Source: a virus
Length of the DNA: 64,000 bases
Virus record (IMG/VR): IMGVR_UViG_3300045988_065177
Coordinates: 20,466-84,465 of that record
Reading direction: 5' to 3' (one strand)
A program made the position numbers and the translations under genes. This document shows, in pieces, positions 1-31,016 of this stretch; within the stretch, counting starts at the first letter, position 1; each line of letters opens with the position of its first letter. The notes below the pieces were generated by a model. The model searched no databases. It saw nothing but the letters and a program-made list of their open reading frames with translations, and had not been told where the DNA came from.

Positions 1-111
1 TGCTACTTAATACCACATCGAATTGATTTATTTCTTCTAGCCTTATCATCAGCTAATTCGATGTTTTTCAAATCATACACTCGTTCGTGCAAATATCCTA
101 CACGTTTCAAT
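1..111 (-). CDS. DGR-type reverse transcriptase, N-terminal fragment; gene runs off the window start
   Basis: Minus-strand frame translates to LKRVGYLHERVYDLKNIELADDKARRNKSIRCGIK(TAG)... The segment VYDLKNIELA..ARRNK resembles the conserved N-terminal 'enL..A...a.kgK' motif of DGR and group II RTs. It lies immediately downstream, in gene orientation, of the DGR template repeat. No ATG in frame (a TTG or GTG start is possible). An in-frame TAG is present. Confidence 0.4.
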
Positions 112-250: not shown

Positions 251-348
251 TAACTCGACATTGGAATTGGCATTGCTGACGTCATTGTTAGAATTGAAAT
301 AGCTGAGACCTGCATTGCTGCCATTATTCGCGTTGCTGCCTACTAGCA
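251..348 (-). repeat. DGR template repeat (TR)
   Basis: About 98 nt, AT-richer copy of the VR sequences. Every mismatch against VR1 (452-549) and VR2 (29279-29370) falls at an adenine of the TR when read on the minus (gene) strand. The TR lies about 80 nt downstream of the stop codon of the VR1-containing gene. Confidence 0.7.
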
Positions 349-427
349 GTACTTTTTTGCCAATCAACGGTTTTTAGAAGTAATATCCTACGATTTATCA
401 TCTAAATCGATTTTTATATTGTATATC

Positions 428-1600
428 TTAAGATACTCTATTCAGAGTCCTGAACCCGACAAGGGAAGTGGCATTGCCGACGTCAGTGCCAGAATAGAAA
501 TAGCCGAGACCCGCAGTGCCGCCATAATGCGCGCGGCCGCCCACCAGCAGCGTGCGAAGCGCTGTGCTGCTTGCGTTGCAGTAATGGTAATCGCAAATAT
601 AAGTAGTAGCACTTCCTCCAACAGCGGATGGAATTATTTCAGCGGTTTCACCTAAGTCAAATGCCTTAATATAACCATCAGATGCTACTTCGTATCCTGC
701 AACGGTTTTCTCTCCAACTACGTCGGTAAATTCCGATACGTTAGTAGTTGTATAGACAGTGCTAATCTCATTAGCAGCTGCTCTCACTATAACTACTCCG
801 TCCAGGTTAGTCCAAATGTCTCCAAACGGATTATCGAACCCTCTCCAGCGAGGTACTTTAAATGTATGAGTTGCTACTGTATTTGTGCCATCTTGAGCTG
901 TACATTCTGGAATAACTAAATCTTTTACTCCAGTGAAGTTACCAAATTCATTGCAGTAACCACAAGGCGTAAGTGGATATGTTGCATTATATCCTGACCA
1001 ACTTGTAGCTGCGTTAGCCCAATCTGTAACTCCAGGTCCCAAACCCCCTTGATGATATCCATCCGCAGTTAACTCTGCATTATATGCAGCCTAAGAATTA
1101 AAATTAGCATATTCAATGACATAATTCCAGTAGAATATCCATTTGTAATATTCATAGCATAGCAATTCTGAACCAGCATTTGTTGCATATGTTCTCATAG
1201 TAGCTCTAGAAATATTAGTTCTAGGCTTTCCTAAATCACTTCTGAATATATCCTTAGTTTCTAATTCTGTAGTTAGATAATCATCGTAGTTAGCTCTATT
1301 TCCTCCACCTCTAAATGCAGTAGTAGTATTAACTACTGATACAGCTTTTGGAGTTGCGGAGACTGTGGTATCAACTGTACTTCTGTATGCATCTATTAAT
1401 AGTTCAGGAATTTCTACCCATGAATCATCAATTTTGACAGTAGAAGTTCTAACCCATCTTTTGTTTCCATCGCTGCCAGATTTTCCATAAAATTTAGGAG
1501 TATTAACTCTTACTGTTCCATCAGTTCCATCGAGCACAGAAGGAGTACTTCCATCTTCTTTGTAAGCCCAATCGTCCGGATATAAATAGTAATTTACCAC
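428..1600 (-). CDS. Tail-fibre-like DGR target protein, C-terminal part. ORFs 1091..1600 and 428..1042 are joined by a single in-frame TAG at 1091-1093. The gene continues upstream through more TAGs.
   Basis: The two listed ORFs are in the same frame, separated only by TAG and 16 sense codons. The C-terminus ...LVGGRAHYGGTAGLGYFYSGTDVGNATSLVGFR matches the GGxxxxGxxAGxxxx...GFR pattern of the CLec-fold/FGE-like variable regions of DGR targets. A GC-rich island (478-570) corresponds to VR1. The stop codon is TAA at 428-430. Confidence 0.5.
452..549 (-). repeat. DGR variable repeat VR1, at the 3' end of the tail-fibre gene
   Basis: Aligns base-for-base with the TR (251-348). The differences are confined to positions where the TR has A on the gene strand. 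It ends about 20 nt before the stop codon, as is typical for DGR VRs. Confidence 0.7.
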
Positions 1601-4600
1601 ACCGTTATTTGCTACACATCCTCTGTAAGCGGACTAAATAGGGAGGGATTTATGTAATAGTGGATTTCCTATTCTAGTAAGGATAGGAGAAGATACGGTA
1701 ATATCCCATTCTACTCCATAAGAGTATAAGTCTACGTTACTGCTTAACTCTGTGACTTGTTTGCTTAGACTCTATTGTTCTTTTTGTAATTCTTCCCAAG
1801 CAGTATTAAGAGCATTAAATTGTTCCTCTAACTTAGTACTAGTATCTGCCCACTATGCAGTCCCATCTTCAGAAAAGGTTAAAATCTATCCAAGTGTTCC
1901 TCCAGCAGGTATGTGTTTATTTCCAGAAGTAGTTGGGTGTACATAATTATTTGCATTATCTGCAATACCACTAAGTTTCTGTTTTTCAGTTTCTGTGTAA
2001 TTAGCTTCAGAAAGTCCTTTTCCTAATTCTTTATCTACCTTACTTTCCAACTCCGTTTTAGTAGCTAAACCACTTATATCCTAGTGTTCCTTTAAATAAT
2101 TTTCATCATTCTATAACTAAGACACTTTAGTTGGAATGGCACTAGATTTTGCATATGTCTAATCTATAACATTTCCAGAGCCATCATAGGTAGCCTTTAA
2201 GTCATATACGGTTTCTCCAACCTTTATAGATTTGATAGCTGCCATATTATTGTATTATTAAAGTTTCTTCTTCTACATTATGATCTATTCCTTCTATGGA
2301 GGCAGTTAAGTCTTCAACAGCTTTCTACAGTTCAGCCTTGGTAGCGTAGTTCTTTAATGTATCTGGGTCTATTCCAGATCCTCCTATATTTCCTCCAACA
2401 ACTTTTACTGGTTTTGCTGAGTTCTTAAACTACCCTTCAACCCAAATTGTTCCCATACTATTTAAAATATTAATTGTTCATTTTCTCCATCTACCTGTAC
2501 GTTACCAGAACCAGGCTATATTGCATCTATTTTCTTCTACAATTCGTCTACAGCAGCCTTTATTAATTCTTCCACCTCAGCTTTTGTATAGTAGCGTTCT
2601 GTCAGATATTCACTTCTGACATATCCTGTATCCTATATATCTTTTTCTCCATAAGTACAATAGTACGTATCGTTCTCTGTCTTATTATTTTCAACTAAGT
2701 CATCATAATCTGTTTGTGGAAGACATACCAATTTAGGAACCTCTTCTGTAAGAGCAACTTGCTTTCCAGATGCTAATAATCTATTGTCTTCTGTAGTAAG
2801 TTTAACAGAACTTTCAATAGTCTGTTCAGTTGTTTCATCTTCTGAACTTTCTCCAGTTGTTCCCTATTGTACTTCTTTTTCGACAATTTTCTAAATAGTA
2901 ATATCAGAAGTTTCTATAGAGGTTGATTTTAGAAGCTCTGTGCTAAATTCCTTAGAAGCGGCATCCTAATCTTCCTAATATTTCTTCTAGGTAACAAATA
3001 TAAAATCGTCATCACCAGTCTCGGGAGAATCTCCTCTTAAACTTTCTTTTGTCACATACTCCTCTGCTATCTAATCGGAAAGGTCGGTTAATGACTATTG
3101 AGTGGCGTATGTAGATTGAGCATTTTCTTTTGTAAGAAACTTTTCATCTACCTACGAGCTAGTGTAGTATGCTTTAATATCTTCTGTAGTAACGTAGCTT
3201 CCTAGTTTCTATAAACCAGAAACAATTTCATCAATCTATGTCTTTGAGTAATAATTAGTAGCAACCCAGGACTGATATTGATTGGTAGTATGATAATTCT
3301 AATCCAAATATTCCTTAGTAATATAAACCTTTGCATCATTTGTGACGTCATATACATAGTAATATGTATCAGGCTCTACCGTCCCTTCCTCTACTAACTT
3401 TAGATACTCTTCTTCAGTTAATGTTACTAAGTTCGGAATATCCGATTCAGTAGCAATCTAATCTTCACCTATAAATAATCCTTCAGACCTAACGTCTACT
3501 ACTAGCTAGCTCTCTCCCTCTACTACAGGAGATTTTATCTATCCAACAGTGATGCTTTCTAAGGAACCATCTCCATCTACCTTAAGAGTTTTATCTAACT
3601 CGTCTTGGATGGCCTACTAATCTTCCTCATATTCTTTCTTTGTAACGAAGACAAAATCATCTCCTTCCATTCCCTCTCCTCTAAGACTTTCTTTAGTAAC
3701 GAAAATATTGTCTGTTTCTTCCTTAGTATAATACTTAGTCAGGGATAGAGCTAAAGAATCATTAGAGACATAATTAGTAGTTAATTCTTCCAGTGTAGCA
3801 TAATCTGATAGGCTGGCAATAGTGTTATCTAAGTCTGTTCTAATCTATACTACAGTAGTATTAAGGGCCTTCTGTTTTAATTGCTCTTCTATCTTTTTTC
3901 CCCATTCCGCAGATAGGTAAAACTAGTCATCGTCTAAGCTATCCTCATATATATAATAATATGTTTCTGCATGAAGATATGTTTTATCTTCGTCTATAGG
4001 TTTAAAATCTTCTGTGGTATTTTTAGACCATTCCTTATATTCAGCCTCTGTACAGGTGATTATCTAAATAGATTCATAAGAAGCTTTCCAACCTTCTTTG
4101 TATTTAATCTTAGACTTATCTACTAGCATATAAATATTTCCGTTATCTATATTTGAAACGGTCATGCCTTGATAAGCATATTTCTCCGGAATAGAATATA
4201 ATTCGGCTAAATTATCGACTACTGTTCTATTATCAAGAGGTTTAGGAGTTTCTACGGTTAAAGCAACACCTAATGTAGCATCACCTGTATATTTAAATGC
4301 CATTATTGTGATAAAGTAAAGTTAATTTGATGAGGCAATGCTGAAGAATAAGTATCCTTCTTAGTCCATACTTTATAAGGAAATCCATTTATCTATTCGG
4401 TAGAAGTTTCCCAGCCACTTAAATCAACATTTAGGTATCCTAGTCCTCCATCTACTGTAAATGAATTTAGCTAAGTATTACTTCCAGGTAATTTTATAAT
4501 AGCTTTTCCACTTAATGAAAATGTAATAATTCCAGAAGATTGTCCAAATGGAACAAGACTCTATTTGATTAAACTATCTGTATTACCAGAATACCAAGGG

Positions 4601-9891: not shown

Positions 9892-11322
9892 TCAAGTCCA
9901 CCTATGTATTCCATTTTGTACAAGTCTCTCATATAACCTAGGATCACTTGTTTCAATTCTGTATGGGTCATCGTATTCATTTTTTTGTATGTTAGTTTCA
10001 AAAGTCTTAGAAGTTGGTATAACCCCAAATCTTTTGATTCCCCTCTCGTCGTAATAATAACCATAATCTTGGAATTGTTCAACTTCTTTTTCAACAAGCA
10101 CTGGCTATCTTCCTGACAATTCCTAGTCTGCCAATTCTGTCATTCCTACAGCGGCTACAATATCGAATTTACCTTTATTCTCATCATTATATCCAGTAAA
10201 TTGGTCTAACATTTCTTCAAACCATATAGTATGACAGAAATCCTCAATAAAGGCTGCAGTCAAATCAGTATGTTGTTCTATAATAGTTTTGGTAGCAGGT
10301 GTTCCATACTATTTAGTAGTTCCATTCTTAACGTCTGTTAGAGTAGCTCTAGGTCTTTTCATAAAGTAGTTTAAACAACCCTTTTCTCTAGCCCAGGTAA
10401 TCATACCTACACGGGTAGCTTCTATGTTTATTCTACAATTATAGTATCTAACTAAACACATAGCTATTTTATAGGCTTCTCTAATGTCATTAGGTCTGTC
10501 TTTATACATAGCAACATACTACGGTTCGTTTAGACCAAATGCTCTTCTTTTTATAGTTATACAGAAATCAGAAGGATCTCTTGTTTCTTTTGAAGTTTGA
10601 CTAGCTCCTATATCAATACCGTCTATTCCTGCAACATATAAATCATGCATTTCTTTGTACGCTGGAGATTCAAATTCTTCTCCCCTTTCCTCAGCTTCCT
10701 ATCTAAGTTTATCCATCTACTCTTTATACAAATCAGACCATACAGGATGTTCAAGTATTTTTACTTTTCCGTTAATATTAGGAATCCATTTAAAACCATC
10801 TATATTATCCTAGGTGTGTTTATTATTTTTATAGAAGTAGTCTATGTATCCAGATTCTGGTCTTGGTCCTATTTTCTTAAGTCTTATATTAGCTAACTGG
10901 TCCGCAATAAGAATCTTGTTGAACTTGTTAACACCTTCAAGATTAAATGCTTCTTCTGCATTCCAACATCGTTCGGCACACTTCTTTAGATAGTCGTCTG
11001 GAACTGCTAATAAATTGTCACGCTCTTCCTATAGATACTTTTTATATTCTACTGTATTACATACACCTCTATGGTCCATGTATTCTGAATTTAGAGACTA
11101 GACAAAATATGGAATGAAGAACCCACTTTCAATAGTAGTTCCGTCCTGTGTATAATTGTGTCTAAATGGAAGAACCTTGTAAGCTTTTGGATTGTAATAT
11201 ATCTTCTTAAGACCTGCTAATGGAGCACCCATATCTCCCGATGTGTTATCGTACAGCTTTTTATCCGTACTTCTATAGCTTCTTATTCGCTATAGTCCAG
11301 CATACCTTTTCACCCACTTATT
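9892..11322 (-). CDS. terL: Terminase large subunit, C-terminal nuclease-domain segment (TAG-recoded)
   Basis: Hand translation in the frame of ORF 9892..10101 gives ...YVAGIDGIDIGASQTSK...DFCITI...YVAMYKDRPNDIREAYKIAMCLVRYYNCRINIEATRVGMITWAREKG..., a typical RNaseH-like terminase nuclease signature. The frame is open from an in-frame TGA at 11323-11325 down to TGA at 9892, with several in-frame TAG. It includes listed ORFs 10309..10509 and 9892..10101. Confidence 0.4.
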
Positions 11323-11377: not shown

Positions 11378-12289
11378 TTACGATAACCCAAAGCCTTTCG
11401 CAATCTCTGAGTTTATCTCGGGATTAACATCACAGTCTTCCCCGATATTGCTCGATAATCTTCTAGAAGATTCCTCTTCTAGACGGCAGAACTCTAAAAA
11501 CTTTTCGTATTTTCTATCTAAATATATGGTAGCATTTTCATATAAATATCTAGCTAATCTTCTAGACGGTATATCGGAAAATTTTAATTCAAATGCTTGA
11601 TTAGTATAATTTTCAGTACTTTTATTTCTGATATATCCTTTATTAGAAAATAAACAATTTATTGAAGTTAAGAAAGATTTAGTACCTACTATCGTAAGTC
11701 TTGTTCTTAATTTATCACCATCTTTAGATATTGTTAAACATCCATCCCCGTCAACATAACCTCTAATAAAATGTAATATATTTACTGTATTTTTAAATAA
11801 TTTCAAATTAGGAAATGCCAGAGTTAATGACTTCTGTGGGACACATCCCAATCTATTTAATGTATTCCATAAATGCTTGTTGCGAACAGATAAGTGACAG
11901 AATTTAATTCCGTTAGTTTCTCCGATTCTAATTTCTGTTGTTAATTGAAGGAATTTTCTAAATTTCTCTAAATGATCCTTATCTTTTAAAGATAATCTTA
12001 TTTCTACTCTATTACCCTCTTTAGAAATATTTCCATCTGCATACATGAATCCTAACCAGTAGAACTATTCTTCTGTATTCATAATGTCAAAACAATTCTC
12101 ATTCAATCTACATTTATTTTGTTGGTTAATTATTTCATAACCCCATTTTTTAAATCTTTCCGATAAAGTTTGACGTTTAATATTATATTTGCTACCAAGT
12201 TTTGTCAAACTTCTTGCTTCTTCTGGAGTATTCAAATACTCTTCTAAAGCTTTTTTACAAATTTCATCAATTTCTCCACTTGTTCTCAT
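11378..12289 (-). CDS. LAGLIDADG homing endonuclease with N-terminal HTH domain; in-frame TAG at 12065-12067 joins ORFs 12065..12289 and 11378..12046
   Basis: Motifs W-LGF-MYADGNIS (motif 1, immediately after the TAG) and FIRGYVDGDGCLTI (motif 2). The N-terminal 74 aa look like a helix-turn-helix. The two listed ORFs are in the same frame, separated by TAG and 6 codons. AT-rich promoter-like DNA lies upstream at 12290-12394. Confidence 0.65.
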
Positions 12290-12394
12290 AATATAAAAAT
12301 TTACTAGTTATTATTCAACTATAATTAAAAATTTTATATATTATAAGTACTGGAGGAGTAATATTAAATTAGTGTAATTAATACGAAATTTTTA

Positions 12395-13423
12395 TTAAAG
12401 TTTTATTCTACCAGTACCTCCAAATAACATTGTTCCACGAGGTTTACCCTGAACTTCACAAAGCTCTTGTCCCTGCACTACAGCAGTATCTAGTCCAGGC
12501 CAGGACCCTGCTTCATCATATATTAATAAGTCAACACGGTCTCCACGAATATTAGATGCCTTAGCTCCATTTATTCCAACTACTTCTGATTTAAATCCAA
12601 CATCCTCAAACTGTCCGTTTACCTTAATCTGTTTACCGGACTTCTTTCTTAAGTCTTGGTCAATCAAGCGTAGTTTGAAGAATCCTCCTCCTGTACAAGT
12701 ATTCAAGAATGTTAAAGCATTATCAAACTTACTAAAAGTACCTTTAAGGAAGGTATCATTAAAACAGGTAATCATTACTCTGCTTCTTCTGATTACTGAA
12801 TACATTCTTGCAGATAAGGACGCATTTATTTCGGAGAATCCAATAGAACGAGCTTTCATAAGAGCTGCGTGTTTATGCAGAACTCTAGCCATCTACAGAT
12901 AATGAAAGAACATATAATGAGATGCGAAAAATATAGGAAAGTCACTACTTGTTCCTTCTCCGGATGCTTTGTTATCATCAATAATAGGAAGCTAGTAGAA
13001 GTTTAGGAAGAAATAGTTATCTCCAGTAATTGTATAACCATTAACAGTCATTCCATATTTACATCTTCTATACTATTCCTTCCAAAACTCATTATATCTC
13101 TTACTATCTTTTAGATATGGACAATACTTTCCAGTTTTTCTATACACTTCTCTGGTCTCAGTAAACCAATCTGGGTCGAAGTCAAGACCATGTGTTTCAT
13201 CTATTGGTCTATATCCAGTTATTTCATAAGATAAAGTAGGGTCAAATACCTCTATCTTATCTCCTCTTTTTACATCCCAATAATCAGCATTTTTGCCTCT
13301 TTCCTCTCTTATCTTCTATACTAGTTCTCTAGCTTCTTTGGCATCCTCTTTTTGTTCTTTCTCTCTTACCTAATCTACTATATTCTAGATTTCTTCAGGT
13401 AATATTTTTTTCTTTCTAGGCAT
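12395..13423 (-). CDS. terL: Terminase large subunit, N-terminal ATPase segment (TAG-recoded), ending at TAA 12395-12397
   Basis: Listed ORF 12395..12892 (..DLLIYDEAGSWPG.., Walker-B-like) continues upstream through TAG at 12893-12895 and further in-frame TAGs to an ATG near 13421-13423. The hand-translated upstream part is ...YRRCKYGMTVNGYTITGDNYFFLNFYQLPIIDDNKASGEG... Confidence 0.4.
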
Positions 13424-14805
13424 AATTAAAAGTCTCCTGGGTCAAAGCCGTCTGTAGCTCCACCTCTTACAGTAGATTGTTCTGTAAGCTCTTTCTTAAC
13501 CTGCTCTTCTAGTGTTACTAATTCTTCATGAACTTTATGAAGAGTAGCCATTTCTTTCATTACCTTTTCAGCTTGAAAGACGGGTTTGCCATTATTATCA
13601 CGTTCATTTAAATCTACTATAGTATCAAAATAATCAATAAACTAGTCAGCTGCTCTTTTAGCTGCTTCTAGAAGTTTTATTGATTTGTTAGAATCCTACA
13701 ATGCTCGGTATTTTCTACAGGCTTCCCTGAATAACGGGTCATTAAATTCGGATTCAGATAGTCCAGAGTCACTAATAGCTTCATCATGTCTTTCATGTTC
13801 TGAATATTGGCTATAGGGACTCTTCCAATCAATAGCTAGATAAATGTAAGATAATTCTCTAGTTACTCGTTCCTTGTCAACAGATTTATCTCTCTGTATC
13901 AAAGCCTTAAACTCTTTAACTAGAAGAAGCTCTGGTTCATTTATCTCTAACTATTTAGTTAAAGTGTTATAATTAAATACATTCATACTCATCAATCATT
14001 AACATTAACATCTTTAATCTTTTTATTTCATTTTAGAACCGCATTTACTTACTTTCATTTTAGAACCACAAGCATCCTTCTTAGCATACTTTGTTCTATC
14101 TGGAACCCATTTTCCATTTTTGAAATTTCCCTTGTGTCCCCTATTTGCCATGACCTCCTAGTCATTATATTTATTAATGGACACAGAATCCCTAGATGCT
14201 TCATCCTTTGCAGATTTCATATCCTTTTTATACTAAGCTCTTCCAGCTTTGAACTTGTCAACTTCATTAGCTTTCTTAGTAACCTTAGTTCCTTTCTATG
14301 CTTTTTGGCAAGCTTTGCAGATTCTTCCTCCCTGTTTAAAATAAACAAGTTCCTCTCCTTCTGGGCATACTCCTTTTAATTTTTTATAGTATTCTAGTTT
14401 AGCTCCAAGTCTAGCCATAACTCCGCCTTGCATCTTCTACATAAATTCTTGATACTTGGCTTTAATTCCATCTTCTCCAAGCTATTCAGCGTAAGCCTAT
14501 AAATCTTGCTCTGATTGTAATTGTATTCCTTGTGCTTGGGCATCTTGTATCAAGTATGCCATGAATGCCTTCTGTAATTCTTCCTAATTAGCCATTACTC
14601 TTCTACTTTAATTAAATCCTTTGTATTAAATACTGCTTCCTGCATTAATCCAGAATCAGTAAACCATCTACATCTTAGTCCTCGTAATCCTTGGTTATCT
14701 TTAAATAAAGCTGCTTCTCTTCTTAGAACAAGCATAACTGGAGAGTGCATTACTTTACACTACCGTAAAGTAACACAATCCCCAGGCTTAAAATAAACTT
14801 TTTCA

Positions 14806-20153: not shown

Positions 20154-20170
20154 AACTATTAATTTTGGCG

Positions 20171-20242
20171 TTGCCCTACTAGGATTCGAACCTAGACTAA
20201 ATGATTTAGAGTCATCTGTGCTGACCATTACACCATAGGGCA
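20171..20242 (-). tRNA. Amber suppressor tRNA, anticodon CUA (reads UAG), derived from tRNA-Gln
   Basis: Minus-strand sequence TGCCCTA-TG-GTGT-AATGGTCA-GCAC-A-GATGA-CTCTAAA-TCATT-TAGT-CTAGG-TTCGAAT-CCTAG-TAGGGCA-A folds as a canonical cloverleaf with anticodon loop CTCTAAA (34-36 = CUA). Its D-arm, T-arm and 4-nt variable loop are nearly identical to tRNA-Gln(UUG) at 33541-33612. Confidence 0.75.
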
Positions 20243-20389: not shown

Positions 20390-20796
20390 GCTTTCAGTTG
20401 TTCTATTTTCATAGTTACTACATTAGATAATGCCATTCTGAATTTAGTAATTCCAGCTCTTACTGATTCCAATTTTCCACTTTCCAAACATTCTTGAATT
20501 TTATTCAGTTCGGACTCCCCTAGATATTCGCAGACATCTATAAATAAATCATCATCTAAAGATTCTAAGTATTTCTGGAATTTGCCTACTTCTTCATTAG
20601 CTAGACAGCTTTCCTCTTTCTATCTTTCATAAGATATTAATAAGAATAAAGAATCATCTGTAGATTCCGCTTTAATGGTTAGGCCATTACTTGATAGATA
20701 ATACTACTAGTTCTTATTAATTGCATCGACGAGATTCTTAAACTCGTCCTAATTTAGTAATGTTTCTAAGTCTGTAATCATAATTGTTTCTTTTTT
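20390..20796 (-). CDS. Hypothetical protein, TAG-recoded (about 4 in-frame TAG); boundaries approximate
   Basis: ATG at 20794-20796. Hand translation gives MITDLETLLN(TAG)DEFKNLVDAINKN(TAG)(TAG)YY... and stays open when TAG is read as sense. Confidence 0.25.
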
Positions 20797-22620: not shown

Positions 22621-22690
22621 TCCCCATTAGTATAATGCATTGCGCCTTCCTCTAAAGAAGGAGATTCTGGTTCAAACCCGGAGTGGGGAA
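22621..22690 (+). tRNA. tRNA-like element with possible CUA anticodon loop; irregular D-arm (possible second suppressor or pseudo-tRNA)
   Basis: TCCCCAT..GCG-CCTTC-CTCTAAA-GAAGG-AGAT-TCTGG-TTCAAAC-CCGGA-GTGGGGA-A. It has a good acceptor, anticodon and T arms. The anticodon loop is identical to that of the suppressor tRNA, but the D region is 2 nt short and does not pair conventionally. Confidence 0.3.
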
Positions 22691-25058
22691 CTTAGTATTT
22701 GAGGACTACAGCTACTTGTAGGCTCTATTTGCTGTTAAGGACTATAATGGGTACGCCCAGAGACTAATGCAGAGCATCTCTTATACCAAACAGTATGCTC
22801 CTTGATACTGGAGAGATGTCTTATCGAGAGATAAGGCAAAGTATTGTGAGATTATACACTATATAATCGAAAATAGCCATTTGGCTATAGGCACAGGAAA
22901 GTTCTGAGACAATTGTGAGGCACAGCGGTGCCTCTACTCCTAAGATAAGAACAACCTTTACGTGGTTTAGGAGATAAGTAAGCTATTCAAGCTGAAACTA
23001 ATAGTTCTAGTAATAATTAATAAAAATGTTTATCATGGAAATTATCAAGATTAAAGAACAGTCTATCAATGCAGAAGAATCTAAGCTCTATAAGAAAATG
23101 TTAGATTCTCTAGGAGTAATCTACGAGACAGAGAAAATTAAGAAGGAGCAAATAGATGTTCCTATCTACGTTCTATTTGAAGAGCTAGATGTTAGGGCAA
23201 ATAATGCTTTAAGGTCTGTTACTAATGACGTAACCATAACTCTAAGTACTTTCGTTAAACAGTATTCAAAGAGAGATATACTAAGAGTTAGAAATGTAGG
23301 AAAGCATACATTGACTCTAGTAGTAGAAGCTTTTAGAAAATTTGGATACGAATTAAACTGAGAATTGGAAGTCCTTCGCCCTTTGCTGGCTTAGAAGTAA
23401 AACAGCACTTTTAATAATTTAATAGATAGTAATTTATGATTGTAGATACGATGACAGGTAAAGATATTGTCAGGGAATTTAACCGCGATATAGACTCAAT
23501 AGATAAAATTGCAGAAAGAATGGCCGTAAAGAAAAGGCGAATACTGTTGAAAATGAAAAATCAAATGACTTTTCCACACTTTGGAGAAATAACTCAGATG
23601 AAAGTTGGAAATAACAGATATTATTTAGTATGGAAATGTCTAAGTAGAAATAGTTTAAATTATACGGTATTTACTAAATGTGGCAAAAGAATATATGCTT
23701 ATTCTACTGATACTACAGTACTGGAGTTTACACGTCATTTTTTAGATAGGTATAACGAGAGGTTTAAAATTGTAGGACTAGATAATATACTAAGGAATAT
23801 CTGCAAAGATTTTTGCTTAGGAAAAATATTTGATTCTACAGTTGTCACAGATACAGGACTATTTATAATGACTGAAACAGACTACGGATTCAGTGCAGTT
23901 ACATGCATGAACGATTTATCGAGGAAAAACAATTTAGAAAGATTAGAAAAAATAAGAAAAGGTCTTTCTATATTAGACCCTAAAAGTAAAGATGAAGAAA
24001 TAATGCAATTGTATAAATTGGGTTTATATGAAGATCCTCTGATGAGTCTTTGAAAATTAAGACGAAACTACCTAGAAATAGGTAGTCAGGATTAAAAGAA
24101 AAAGAAAATGAGAAAATTCAACAGATTACACTGCGATTCAACTGTTCGCGCAAGATTTACAGATTCATGGGGAAGAGTGATAACTCTCACTGGAACCCAC
24201 GCCTTCGAGTATACCATTCACATAGAAGGCATCAGAACAGTTACAGAAACATTTGTGAATGGAAAATTAGCAAGAAAAGATTTAACGAATTAAAAAGAAA
24301 ACCATGAGAAAAAGATTCAAAGCTGCGAGAATAGCATCTTCAGACAACTACGAATTGTCTAGAAGAATACATTCTCAGTATTTAAAGAGATGGCACAATG
24401 CTAACATCGAGGTAATCACTGAAATTACCACATCATTAGTAATCAAAGAACAAAAATACATAAGAGTATTTGGAGAATTAATTCCGATTTCGGAAGAGGA
24501 ATTGAGAATCCATAACACTCTGATAGTTGAGAACTAATATGGAAGATTTATTAGCAATTGTTAGATGGGGCATTACTTTACCCGTTTGGTTATTAGAACA
24601 TATACTGAAAGGTTTAACTTTCATTGTTCTAGTATTTGGACTTGTCGTTATGGCGATTTTATTCCCGCTATTTCGATCTACTTGGCGTCGTACAGGCGAT
24701 TCTCGTGTATTTAAGTATGCAACAAAGTGGAGAGGAAACTATCCACTAACAAAAAAAGTATTTAGTTTATGGCAATAATGAGAAGAATCACCGAAATAAA
24801 CGGTGAGATAATTATGGTGGAAACTATGATTATTGTAGGCAATATAATCCTTTGTACAATTCATATTAATGGAGAGCTAGTTAAGTATGAAATATTATCT
24901 GTTGGACAGTTATGGGAAGATCGTTAGGTCTTTCCGTAGCTGGTCAGAAGCTAACAAATTCAGAATAGTGATGAATAGATTGGATTGGAGGATTGTACCA
25001 TGACCTATATAGTAGTATTCATAATATTAATTATCATTTGGAAGGCAATTGAAGAACA

Positions 25059-27868: not shown

Positions 27869-28824
27869 CACATTTTAATTAATTAGATTATGACAAAAGA
27901 AGAAGCAATTAGAGCTATGTCTGAAGGAAAGAAAGTAAGGCATAGATACTTTAGTAAAGACGAATGGGTAACTATAAATTCCAGCGGACTATATGAGTTC
28001 GAGGATGGTATAAAAGTTGACTCATCGTTATTCTGGATGGACAGACAGGATTCCTATTGGAATGATGGATGGAGCTTAGTTTAACTTTAAATAAGAATAA
28101 AAATGACAACGTATGAATACGGAGAAGGATACTTACCAGAAATCTGGTACTAGTGTAGTATTTCAAAAAGAAATTAAGCAGTGTAGAGAATGTCCGCACT
28201 GCTTAATTGTTCCTGACCCAGATCCTAATGACTGGTTCAATGATGACGACGAGAAAGCGCTCTGTAAGGAGTCTGAGAATAAACTAATTGAAGGAATGTT
28301 AAGACCTTACGAAAGGGTATTAATTCCAGATTGGTGTCCATTAAAAACTAATAAATAAAATGAATAAAATGAATAAAACAAAAGCTTGCCTTGAAATAAC
28401 TTTAGAACAGGCACGTAAATGGTATGAGGGTGGCAATGAAGACTTGAAAAAATTAGCTCTTACCGCTTTTAGCGAAGAAGTTCTAGTCCCTTCTCTTGGA
28501 GAAATATTAGAATCTGAAAAGGATTGGGATGTGCTATTTTTACCTTTAGGGATATCAGAGCAAACTAAGTCTCTAATTTGTCTACAAATAGTAGCTAATT
28601 ACTTAAACAATGGTTGGAATAAAACAGAGAGTAACAGCGGTTATTTCCTTGGAAGGGGTTCTTCTCTATCTGGAAAGACGGAAACTGATATAAAAGGAGT
28701 GTACGTCGTTATGCATCAAAACGTAAAATATCCAGGTGTTGTTTATTTTAGAACTGTAGCTGATGTACAGAAAGCGGTGAAGATACTAGGAAAGAAGTTG
28801 CTGCCGCTATTCGAATAATTTGAT

Positions 28825-28928: not shown

Positions 28929-29489
28929 ATGAAAAAGACAATTGAAATTGAATGTCCAGATGGTTATAAACCCATCTATAATGCCGAAACTGGCAATGTT
29001 GAAATCGTTCCAGAAAACATTATGGGACGGATAAGAACCTATGAGGATGCTGTAAACTATCTAGGGTGTGTTACTAGAGATACTATTTACTACAATAGAT
29101 CTGTAAATTCTCTAGCTAAGTTGCAGACAGTCTTGGATGCGCTAAATGAAGGCCACAAGTTCAATCTGTTAACTGGTACTATATGGTATCCCTGGGTTCG
29201 CTTCTTTAGAATGAAATCAGTTCCGAAGGATGCAGAAGTCATTGGTCACTTCCGTTATCAGGGCGAGAAATTCGCGTTGGTGGGCGGCCACGCGTATGAT
29301 GGCGGCGATGCGGGTCTCGGCTCTTTCTATTCTAACAATGGCGTCGGCGTTGCCGATTCCGCTGTCGGGATGCTTGCGTGCAAATCTGAAGAGATTGCCA
29401 AATACGTATCAACCCAGTTTGGAAAGCTAGTGTTCGATGCTTGTTTTGCAAGACATTTCAAGGGTGAAGAATTTGAATGGCTTGACTAA
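28929..29489 (+). CDS. Second DGR target protein (contains VR2); small CLec-like C-terminal domain
   Basis: ...GEKFALVGGHAYDGGDAGLGSFYSNNGVGVADSAVGML.. is homologous to the tail-fibre VR1 region (LVGGRAHYGGTAGLGYFYSGTDVGNATSLVGFR). A GC-rich island at 29270-29370 lies inside an otherwise AT-rich gene. Confidence 0.6.
   Translation: MKKTIEIECPDGYKPIYNAETGNVEIVPENIMGRIRTYEDAVNYLGCVTRDTIYYNRSVNSLAKLQTVLDALNEGHKFNLLTGTIWYPWVRFFRMKSVPKDAEVIGHFRYQGEKFALVGGHAYDGGDAGLGSFYSNNGVGVADSAVGMLACKSEEIAKYVSTQFGKLVFDACFARHFKGEEFEWLD
29279..29370 (+). repeat. DGR variable repeat VR2 (remote target, opposite strand, 29 kb from the TR)
   Basis: Plus-strand sequence aligns with the reverse complement of the TR (251-348). 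I found 13 differences, all at TR adenines (for example gcaAtgcAggtctcAgctAtttcA.. versus gcgAtgcGggtctcGgctCtttcT..). Confidence 0.65.
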
Positions 29490-29968
29490 TGAAAAAGTTC
29501 CTTGTAATTATGCTTGCTATGCTCTGGATGAGCGTAGCAGCTTTTTCTCAAATAACTATATCACAAGAAGACTATGATAAGTTGCCTGGTGAAACTAGAA
29601 CTCAAATCGAGAAGATAACAACAGAGAAAGCTATAAAGGGTGAAATCAAGGAAGTTTCTGAGTATGCAAATCTTGGTAAGGAAATTGGCGTAGCAGTCAA
29701 TGAAACCTTAAAAGCAGTTGAAGATTCAGCCATAAGAATAGCAGAATCCGACCTAGGACAAACAGCAATAACTATCGTAGTGTGGAAACTCCTCTATAAG
29801 GAGATAGCCGGAATTGTAGTAGGCACCATACTATTAGGAATATCAGTATTTATGCTATTAACTGGTAGAGGTAGACTATCTAAAAACGATGAAGATGCTG
29901 GAGGTTGGATAAGTGTGGTAGGAGGAGCTGTATTCTTTATATCTTCAATGATTTGTATATTTGGCTGA
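29489..29968 (+). CDS. Membrane protein (signal peptide plus 2 C-terminal TM helices), immediately downstream of the VR2 gene
   Basis: MKKFLVIMLAMLWMSVAAFSQ... and hydrophobic C-terminal segments. Confidence 0.45.
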   Translation: MKKFLVIMLAMLWMSVAAFSQITISQEDYDKLPGETRTQIEKITTEKAIKGEIKEVSEYANLGKEIGVAVNETLKAVEDSAIRIAESDLGQTAITIVVWKLLYKEIAGIVVGTILLGISVFMLLTGRGRLSKNDEDAGGWISVVGGAVFFISSMICIFG

Positions 29969-30254: not shown

Positions 30255-30485
30255 ATGAAAAAGTTAACAATTATTTCATTAGGACTTGTGCTACTATTTA
30301 GTTGTTCGGGTTCAACTAGTGAACTAGAAGCTACTAGGAATACCAGAGATGGAATTATTCCATTTGGTGCCGCAGTTCACTTTAAATACAAGAATCATCA
30401 GTACATTAAATTCACCGAGGGAAATGGGAACTACAAGGTTGTAGGAGTAGTTCATGACCCAGATTGTAAATATTGTAAGAGATGA
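30255..30485 (+). CDS. Small lipoprotein (Bacteroidetes-type signal, Cys after LLFS)
   Basis: MKKLTIISLGLVLLFSCSGS... Confidence 0.4.
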   Translation: MKKLTIISLGLVLLFSCSGSTSELEATRNTRDGIIPFGAAVHFKYKNHQYIKFTEGNGNYKVVGVVHDPDCKYCKR

Positions 30486-31000
30486 GCGAAGTGTATTATC
30501 TTTTGGCAGCCATTTCATATGGCATTTTTCTAGTTCAATTCATTTTATCTTGGTTCGGTGGAGACACCGACTTAGATGTTGATTTAGATGGAGAACTAGA
30601 TATGAACGTGAGTGATATTGTCTCATTTAAGGGATTAATCCATTTTATAATGGGAGCTAGTGGATGGCTTTGTGTTAAGCAATCTGTATCTCATTCTGTA
30701 GAATGGTATGATTATCTAATCGCATTAGTATGCGGTATTCTTTTCGTGGTTATACTTTACTACTTATATAAACTCTGTTTAAAACTCCAGCATCAAGTTA
30801 TTCCAGAAGAGGGTGAAGCCTTGATTGGAAGGGTTGGAATTATCACAGTTCCTTGTGAAAACCATTTCTTCATTACTATTGAAGTAAATGGAGGTTCTGA
30901 GGAAATTGTTGCCTATCCAGAAGTTCCAAAAATGGGATATATGGTTGGTACTCGTGTGGTAATTTCTAAATTTGAGAATGGAAAGTATTATTTTAACTAA
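30482..31000 (+). CDS. NfeD-like membrane protein (short form), partner of the SPFH/flotillin protein
   Basis: N-terminal TM helices followed by a C-terminal beta-barrel-like segment GRVGIITVPCENHFFITIEVNGGSEEIVAYPE...GTRVVISKFENG. Translationally coupled to the downstream flotillin gene. Confidence 0.5.
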   Translation: MSEVYYLLAAISYGIFLVQFILSWFGGDTDLDVDLDGELDMNVSDIVSFKGLIHFIMGASGWLCVKQSVSHSVEWYDYLIALVCGILFVVILYYLYKLCLKLQHQVIPEEGEALIGRVGIITVPCENHFFITIEVNGGSEEIVAYPEVPKMGYMVGTRVVISKFENGKYYFN

Positions 31001-31016
31001 AAAGAATTTTTAAAAG

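Follow-up and report, generated by a model that had tools for sequence, protein, structure and literature searches.

Can a diversity-generating retroelement (DGR) that sits beside a phage tail-fiber gene also diversify a small gene tens of kilobases away on the opposite strand, and if so, to what end? The question is raised by a 64,000-nt stretch of viral DNA (positions 20,466 to 84,465 of IMG/VR record IMGVR_UViG_3300045988_065177; here called the window), in which an earlier note, made from the sequence alone, had pointed to a remote second variable repeat (VR2) of a DGR. Our answer is that VR2 is probably an active, nonadjacent second target of the phage's single DGR, operating by the mechanism proposed below, this being the explanation that best accounts jointly for the evidence.

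VR2 occupies positions 29278..29369 (+), 1 nt from the placement in the earlier note (29279-29370), and encodes, in frame, residues 117-147 of a 186-aa protein. The open reading frame (ORF) of this protein, target gene 2 (28929..29489, +), has an ATG start, a TAA stop, and no in-frame TAG, and its product belongs to PHROG_11581. A BLASTN search of positions 29200-29480 against the whole window returned two further copies of about 92 nt, both on the opposite strand (546..455 and 343..256), and VR2 aligns without gaps to the reverse complements of both. The copy at 343..256 is part of an A-rich, noncoding repeat (252..349, -) between target gene 1 and a reverse transcriptase (RT) gene, with 30 A in 92 nt in the ungapped three-way alignment. 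VR2 differs from this copy at 20 of 92 nt, and all 20 mismatches fall at its adenines (hypergeometric P = 3.6e-13), which identifies the copy at 252-349 as the template repeat (TR) of a DGR. The third copy, VR1 (453..550, -; aligned part 546..455), likewise has 20 of 20 mismatches at TR adenines. It forms the C terminus of target gene 1 (428..2245, -), which encodes a tail-fiber-like protein of ~605 aa ending in ...VGFRTLNRVS* and contains 9 in-frame TAG codons. The TR is conserved, with all adenines kept, in at least 19 distinct related sequences. VR2 is 28.9 kb away from the TR, on the opposite genomic strand and in the same sense relative to its own coding strand, and it stands out as a GC-rich island in AT-rich DNA (63% G+C versus 39% in the rest of the gene and 35% in the window). 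The earlier note was thus accurate on the gene, the distance (29 kb), the orientation, and the base composition. VR2 is internal to its gene rather than at the protein C terminus, ending at residue 147 of 186 with 39 residues after it, so any 3' recognition element would fall within coding sequence.

The RT gene adjoins the TR on its downstream side. Its first ~37 codons (LKRVGYLHERVY...) lie at 1..110 (-), and the gene exits the window at the left end; the partial ORF starts with LKRVGYLHERVYDLKNIELADDKARRNK. A full-length ortholog on a related contig (L066, 5277-6581) contains IGNYLSQ (the GxxxSQ motif of DGR RTs), YADD, and 5 in-frame TAG codons, and it matches the PHROG_1423 reverse transcriptase family (E = 7.5e-112). 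A 319-aa homolog of the C-terminal domain of target gene 1 (P0450) carries a precomputed Pfam match to PF03852 (Vsr mismatch endonuclease), which may be spurious.

Is VR2 still being rewritten? A degenerate form of the repeat, with N at the adenines, was found in IMG/VR in exactly three copies per genome in ~35 related contigs of ~186 kb, i.e., the TR and VR1 ~200 nt apart, plus a single remote copy. Variation of VR2 was measured as differences between assemblies. In the related genomes, 32 of 33 VR2 and 26 of 26 VR1 sequences were distinct. The earlier note had held that a VR2 showing no population-level variation could be a nonfunctional ancient target; instead, VR2 is different in nearly every genome, and it varies at TR adenines only. 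For the 186-aa protein, 834 relatives were found in the database (with 3514 member sequences in a single 90%-identity cluster), and the best 120 of these relatives, 85-95% identical, were aligned for entropy. In these best 120 homologs, ten residues (121, 123, 124, 127, 134, 136, 137, 141, 143, and 145) reached 2.92-3.52 bits with 11-16 different residues each, and these ten correspond to the AAY codons of the TR. Residue 132, which is TAT in the TR, reached 2.06 bits; S, Y, C, and F, the residues attainable by a change of the middle base, account for 117 of 121 sequences. Outside these 11 positions, no residue in the same alignment exceeded 2 bits, most were near zero, and the codons flanking VR2 were almost invariant. 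At the DNA level, among 39 genomes, entropy exceeded 1.3 bits only at the AAY/TAT adenines (1.4-1.96 bits).

The two recipients vary separately. At 21 freely variable sites, the identity of VR1 and VR2 was 0.331 within genomes versus 0.331 between genomes (p = 0.52), and therefore the two targets are rewritten independently, and VR2 is not copied from VR1. A single TR serves both VR1, in the adjacent tail-fiber-like gene, and VR2, 28.9 kb away in the gene for the PHROG_11581 protein, and throughout the population each of the two repeats is rewritten separately and at no positions other than TR adenines. Judged from these comparisons, VR2 is a real, active DGR target across the phage population and not a relic. 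That VR2 is instead an ancient, inactive target, i.e., a frozen copy of the repeat, is extremely improbable, for although its internal position in the gene and the lack of a BPP-1-like recognition element or strong hairpin after it would suit such a copy, nearly all VR2 sequences are distinct, their variation is restricted to TR adenines beside near-invariant flanking codons, and the canonical target VR1 has equally short 3' homology.

We also regard it as very unlikely that VR2 is diversified through gene conversion or DNA recombination, with VR1 or the TR as the partner, rather than by retrohoming of its own. Some exchange or misassembly does occur, since a few assembled TRs look chimeric with VR sequence (L047, L055, and L092). 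Nevertheless, VR1 and VR2 from the same genome are no more alike than pairs from different genomes, the 5' and 3' junctions of VR2 remain its own in every genome, and its differences from the TR are adenine specific. In the chimeric-looking TRs, VR-like G or other substitutions occupy only part of the repeat (the 3' half in L047, the 5' part in L055, and two sites in L092); they represent either misassembly among the three repeat copies or real TR/VR exchange.

The adenines of the TR fall into two classes, as seen in a comparison of the TR (252-349) with 453-550 and 29274-29371 and with related loci (L040-L108). Those in AAY and TAT codons take all four bases in the VRs: the first A of AAY is read as G in 35%, T in 32%, A in 22%, and C in 12% of copies, and the second as A in 49%, G in 27%, T in 15%, and C in 9%. 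Adenines that precede a G (CTAG, GTAG, GCAGC four times, GCAGG, and CGAG) appear as G in ~95% of VR1 and VR2 copies, the value for the four AGC codons being 95.8%. Selection for glycine was considered as the whole explanation of these nearly constant G's and was rejected, since three synonymous third positions (CTA, GTA, and GCA) show the same spectrum (G 94.4%, A 5.1%, T 0.6%, and C 0; n = 177). The pattern points to a near-deterministic, context-dependent reading of A as G. The same relation of TR A to VR G is present in the unrelated crAss-like phage cr7_1 (L113). For the BPP-1 RT, the base 3' of a template adenine is known to matter, and this has been explained by slippage that reuses the preceding template base (PMC12875486). 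For NAG, slippage of this kind should put a C into the cDNA and a G into the VR, the direction seen here, but at a frequency that here is far above that of BPP-1.

The genomic setting of the two targets differs in genetic code. The minus-strand block at 1-16.9 kb, which contains the portal gene and a split terminase gene (portal and TerL match PHROG families), is late, and its coverage by ORFs of at least 120 aa rises from 31% with the standard code to 92% with TAG read through. In the plus-strand block (21-64 kb), coverage by ORFs of the same minimum length rises from 67% to only 70%, which bears out the placement of the VR2 gene in a standard-code region by the earlier note. The VR2 gene and its neighbors are thus in the standard code, and the RT and the tail fiber carry in-frame TAG. 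If TAG occurred at the late-gene rate of 2.9% of codons, the VR2 gene and its neighbor, 345 codons in all, would be free of it with a probability of 3.6e-5, which argues that these two genes belong to the standard-code expression class. Among the 25 tRNAs encoded in the window, two are suppressor-type tRNAs with anticodon CUA, both labeled tRNA-Pyl by ARAGORN (20170..20242, -, and 22621..22691, +), and presumably the first is required for reading the in-frame TAG codons of the RT and target gene 1. The GC skew is reversed near 17 kb, at the point of divergence of the gene strands, and the two tRNA(CUA) genes, one per strand, bracket this strand and skew switch at the junction of the recoded and standard-code blocks.

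The phage appears to be a Zeta crAss-like phage of the ctoVY1 / cthgQ11 / 3717_85572 group, judging by its resemblance to the phages in Table 1 of PMC12386605. The features behind this assignment are the size of the related IMG/VR contigs (185-192 kb), the 25 tRNAs, the two tRNA(CUA) genes, the amber-recoded late block, the portal, and TerL. A DNA search of a phage collection returned no close genome, with matches only to tRNAs and to the VR of cr7_1. In the late block, terL is split: two segments match PHROG_6681, and between them is an ORF whose motifs are of the LAGLIDADG type (...WLGFMYADGN... and ...IRGYVDGDGC...; the three segments lie at 9892-11322, 11378-12307, and 12395-13441, -). The arrangement suggests that terL has been interrupted by an intron or another mobile insertion. 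In the tRNA array of the plus strand, ARAGORN called a tRNA-Ser with the unusual anticodon ACT (38443-38524, +) between tRNA-Gly and tRNA-Cys genes.

What kind of protein is being diversified? The 186-aa protein matches PHROG_11581, a family of unknown function (E = 1.4e-16; residues 25-176 on positions 37-195 of the 200-position profile), and no hydrophobic segment or signal peptide was found in it. An exhaustive search gathered 238 clusters at 50% identity, mostly of 170-220 aa and alignable end to end, and a profile search gave 2815 relatives at E <= 1e-5, many of them on contigs of 97-112 kb. Hypervariability at the corresponding positions is also seen in a subfamily from phages of ~98 kb (24 sequences with identities of 80% or more); no TR was found for this subfamily in a degenerate-pattern search of IMG/VR. 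In other family members, IMG/VR relatives of this subfamily, the VR-like segment is AT rich and apparently undiversified, so the PHROG_11581 family occurs both with and without DGR targeting. On a ~98-kb crAss-like contig, the homolog stands among small genes beside Myb-like and AAA proteins, and in Bacteroides phage Versailles it stands between NinB/Orf and the replisome organizer. The Versailles homolog is annotated as a 'tail protein', according to its record through an HHpred match to PHROGs; we suspect that this match reflects the VR-like motif.

The earlier note had described the target as a small CLec-like protein and expected a C-type lectin (CLec) or formylglycine-generating enzyme (FGE) fold; neither the fold nor the homology tests bore this out. 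The 186-aa protein has no Pfam match, the 86 family members searched gave only isolated weak single-member matches, and the tail-fiber target gave none. A search of PDB sequences with the family profile found nothing beyond a chance match to a colicin (E = 0.055). A structure model built from close homologs only was unusable (predicted local distance difference test [pLDDT] score of 43). With a 77-sequence alignment, pLDDT reached 78.5 and the predicted template modeling score 0.72, the VR residues 126-146 staying below a pLDDT of 50, and a structural-similarity test on this model, with its poorly modeled VR loop, did not yield a CLec fold for the VR-bearing domain. Homology to known CLec-type targets beyond the VR was likewise absent by hhalign, BLASTP, Pfam, and PDB sequences. 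The CLec-like label is therefore not supported by these tests; the poor definition of the VR loop in the model would still allow a divergent CLec domain. In hhalign, the only part of the family that aligns with the tail-fiber target family is a stretch of 41 columns around the VR (LVGG-A--G--AGLG-F-S--GVG-----VGF), with a probability of 96%, and BLASTP aligns only 32 residues between the two targets. The two targets thus have a common VR module set in otherwise unrelated scaffolds.

Directly downstream of the VR2 gene, as the earlier note had proposed, is a gene for a membrane protein (29489..29968, +), of 159 aa and with an N-terminal signal-like segment and two C-terminal hydrophobic segments. 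The overlap of the two genes that it reported also exists, as TAATG with one base shared by stop and start (29489) rather than as ATGA. The membrane-protein gene is conserved downstream in relatives; in ~9 of 38 related loci, a gap of 245-330 nt separates the two genes (inserted loci L020, L021, L026, L029, L031, L032, L033, L036, and L037, where the TAATG overlap is broken), and hence their coupling is not universal. A conserved two-gene module of target and membrane protein was considered and rejected, the pairing being missing in distant family members and interrupted in some close relatives, and it is uncertain whether the membrane protein is part of the target system. Upstream, a 152-aa ORF (28360..28818, +) is a paralog of the N-terminal half of the family without the VR-bearing C-terminal half (E = 9e-7 in an hmmsearch with the family profile, of which it matches positions 4-91), and tRNA-His sits between it and the VR2 gene. 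Farther downstream, at 30255-32990 (+), lies a cluster of envelope-related genes of a kind unusual in phages. It consists of an ORF of 76 aa whose N terminus resembles that of a lipoprotein (...LLFSC), an NfeD-like membrane protein of 172 aa with two segments, and a Band_7/SPFH protein of 657 aa (PF01145, E = 1.3e-19) that has a long tail rich in Ala, Glu, and Lys.

We propose that the DGR works as follows. The RT carries TAG codons that need suppression and is therefore expected late; it would be made once the suppressor tRNA(CUA) is effective. It would then copy the TR RNA into adenine-mutagenized cDNA, which would replace VR1 and VR2 in replicating genomes before packaging, so that each progeny genome would bear a new tail-fiber tip and a new small-protein variant. 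The latter would be expressed in the next infection, where it would bind a strain-variable host component inside the newly infected cell, for counter-defense or host takeover. DGR homing depends on replication direction, as shown for BPP-1 in E. coli (PMC12875486). Here, the two targets lie on opposite sides of the skew and strand switch (17-21 kb), each codirectional with its own gene block, and this would be the favored homing orientation for both if the skew minimum marks the replication origin. Recognition of the targets would depend on a short or noncanonical 3' element, given that both VRs read GTCGGG where the TR has GTCGAG.

Could the diversified protein act elsewhere than inside the cell? 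It might work with the membrane protein and the lipoprotein/NfeD-like/SPFH cluster at the envelope, for example in superinfection exclusion or against variable envelope components. The membrane protein, which bears a signal peptide, has a start codon that overlaps the target gene's stop, and the lipoprotein-like and NfeD-like membrane ORFs and the Band_7/SPFH protein all lie within 3.5 kb. The target protein itself, however, has no signal peptide or membrane segment, the insertions break the coupling in about a quarter of the relatives (~9/38), and in other phages unrelated soluble proteins come next after family members; we therefore consider an envelope role quite improbable. An adsorption role fares somewhat better and is still unlikely. 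In that case, the 186-aa protein would belong to the virion as an accessory receptor-binding protein whose gene lies apart from the tail module, and both targets would serve adsorption, as might be expected from the 41-column VR module in common with the tail-fiber target family, from the 'tail protein' annotation in Versailles, and from the dual adhesin targets of other gut phages (tentaclins, PMC10743442). Yet the gene lies in a standard-code tRNA block and lacks TAG (P = 3.6e-5), its homologs stand among replication and recombination genes, the protein shows no similarity to structural proteins, and the Versailles label rests on the HHpred match discussed above. A binding role inside the cell after entry seems most likely, and adsorption less so, because the protein has no signal peptide and its relatives are found among early or replication genes in other Bacteroidales phages.

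Several points nonetheless weigh against an active second target with an intracellular role. The RT is only partly in the window, and although it appears intact in this genome, its integrity is read from relatives. Between target gene 1, the TR, and the RT gene there is no ORF, and no Avd was seen in the cassette, the 127-aa ORF after the RT gene having been judged by eye and not by a profile library scan; Avd is absent from most Zeta crAss-like DGRs (PMC12386605). No canonical initiation of mutagenic homing (IMH) element was detected at the 3' end of VR2 or VR1. The homology of the VRs to the TR ends 6-8 nt past the last mutable adenine, with GTCGGG(T/A)T in the VRs versus GTCGAGTT in the TR. 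The G of GTCGGG, where the TR has GTCGAG, is fixed in 59 of 59 VRs, and this G/A difference is the only candidate for an IMH/IMH* distinction, its 6-8 nt being far below the 34-bp IMH of BPP-1. The earlier note had suggested looking for a GC-rich IMH-like element with a hairpin at the 3' end of VR2. No GC-rich inverted repeat lies 3' of either VR, and only weak AT-rich hairpins are present (-3.8 and -3.0 kcal/mol), with z-scores of -1.6 after VR2 and -1.9 after VR1. Their stems (GCAAATCT-GAAG-AGATTGC after VR2 and ACTCT-GAAT-AGAGT after VR1) have a common TCTGAA core and were rejected, being weak, as evidence for a BPP-1-like hairpin; the VR2 stem falls within CKSEEIA, a conserved coding motif, and in 12 of 39 genomes G29393A removes one of its pairs. 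High-confidence inverted repeats occur in just 34% of DGRs (Wu et al. 2018, PMC5758913), so the lack of one here is no argument against activity. As to the role, placement and the lack of TAG argue for, and do not prove, nonlate expression of the VR2 gene, and the VR module in common with the tail fiber would leave room for a virion-associated role.

Nonadjacent second targets are already known in phages. The closest parallel is Quimbyvirus ('Quimbyviridae'; Benler et al. 2021, PMC8008677), which, like the present phage, has one DGR with a target next to the tail-fiber genes and a second, presumably nonstructural target on the opposite strand and away from the structural module; there, too, activity was read from adenine-specific differences among near-identical genomes. 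Quimbyvirus belongs to a different phage group, and its second target was reported to have a C-type lectin domain, whereas the protein studied here belongs to PHROG_11581 and has no detectable CLec fold. The Quimbyvirus target sits in a defense-related island (methyltransferases, nuclease, and tRNA ligase) rather than in a tRNA block beside membrane proteins, and its RT is frameshifted, not TAG recoded. Wu et al. (2018, PMC5758913) also noted 'many examples' of phage DGRs with an adjacent and a nonadjacent target, nearly always <50 kb from the RT, as here; their second targets were given without functional characterization, and internal VRs were rare in CLec-type targets. The earlier note had called dual targeting of a structural and an early protein unusual; its interpretation is partly supported, and the arrangement has these precedents. 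In the tentaclin gut phages (PMC10743442), a single TR likewise serves two different proteins, with VR1 and VR2 unlike within a genome, but both targets were modeled as CLec and put forward as receptor-binding proteins or adhesins; in the present phage, the second scaffold is unrelated to the first except in the VR, and it is early-like and soluble.

The Zeta crAss-like phages ctoVY1, cthgQ11, and 3717_85572 (PMC12386605) match the present phage in genome size (~186 kb in its relatives), G+C content (~35%), tRNA(CUA), amber recoding, the tRNA block, and a tail-fiber protein-VR-TR-RT cassette without Avd. The targets in that survey are tail fibers with a C-terminal CLec domain, and extra TR-VR pairs were reported only for Lera and ct1yV3; the survey lists tail-fiber targets only, and we found no mention in it of a remote target in the early block. 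With BPP-1 (mtd-avd-TR-brt), the present system has in common the adenine-specific transfer from TR to VR, AAY as the main mutable units, and a tail-fiber target. In BPP-1 there is a single target, adjacent and with the VR at its C terminus, as opposed to two targets here, 29 kb apart and one with an internal VR; BPP-1 also has Avd, an IMH with a GC-rich start, and a GC-rich inverted repeat, in contrast to the 6-8 nt of 3' homology, the weak hairpins, and the lack of a detected Avd here. What is distinctive in the present case is the unrecognized target family, the internal VR, and the combination of a recoded RT with a standard-code target.

Phage DGRs are usually read as switches of receptor specificity, and here one retroelement, carried by gut phages of an abundant group, also diversifies a small soluble protein, which points to an infection step after adsorption at which variability pays. 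Targets tens of kilobases away from the RT escape surveys centered on the DGR cassette, and Roux et al. (PMC8144416) described their own pipeline as blind to remote targets. With at least 2815 sequence clusters, the PHROG_11581 family is found widely among crAss-like phages and other phages of Bacteroidales, and DGR targeting would mark residues 120-147 as a ligand-contacting surface and thereby offer a handle for a ligand search. More tentatively, PHROG_11581 may be a new, non-CLec DGR scaffold and its members early, intracellular, hypervariable binders of strain-variable host factors (e.g., defense proteins), the variant being written in the previous infection by the late, TAG-recoded RT. 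If this were true, phage DGRs would extend from adsorption to the determination of host range after entry, in several crAss-like lineages.

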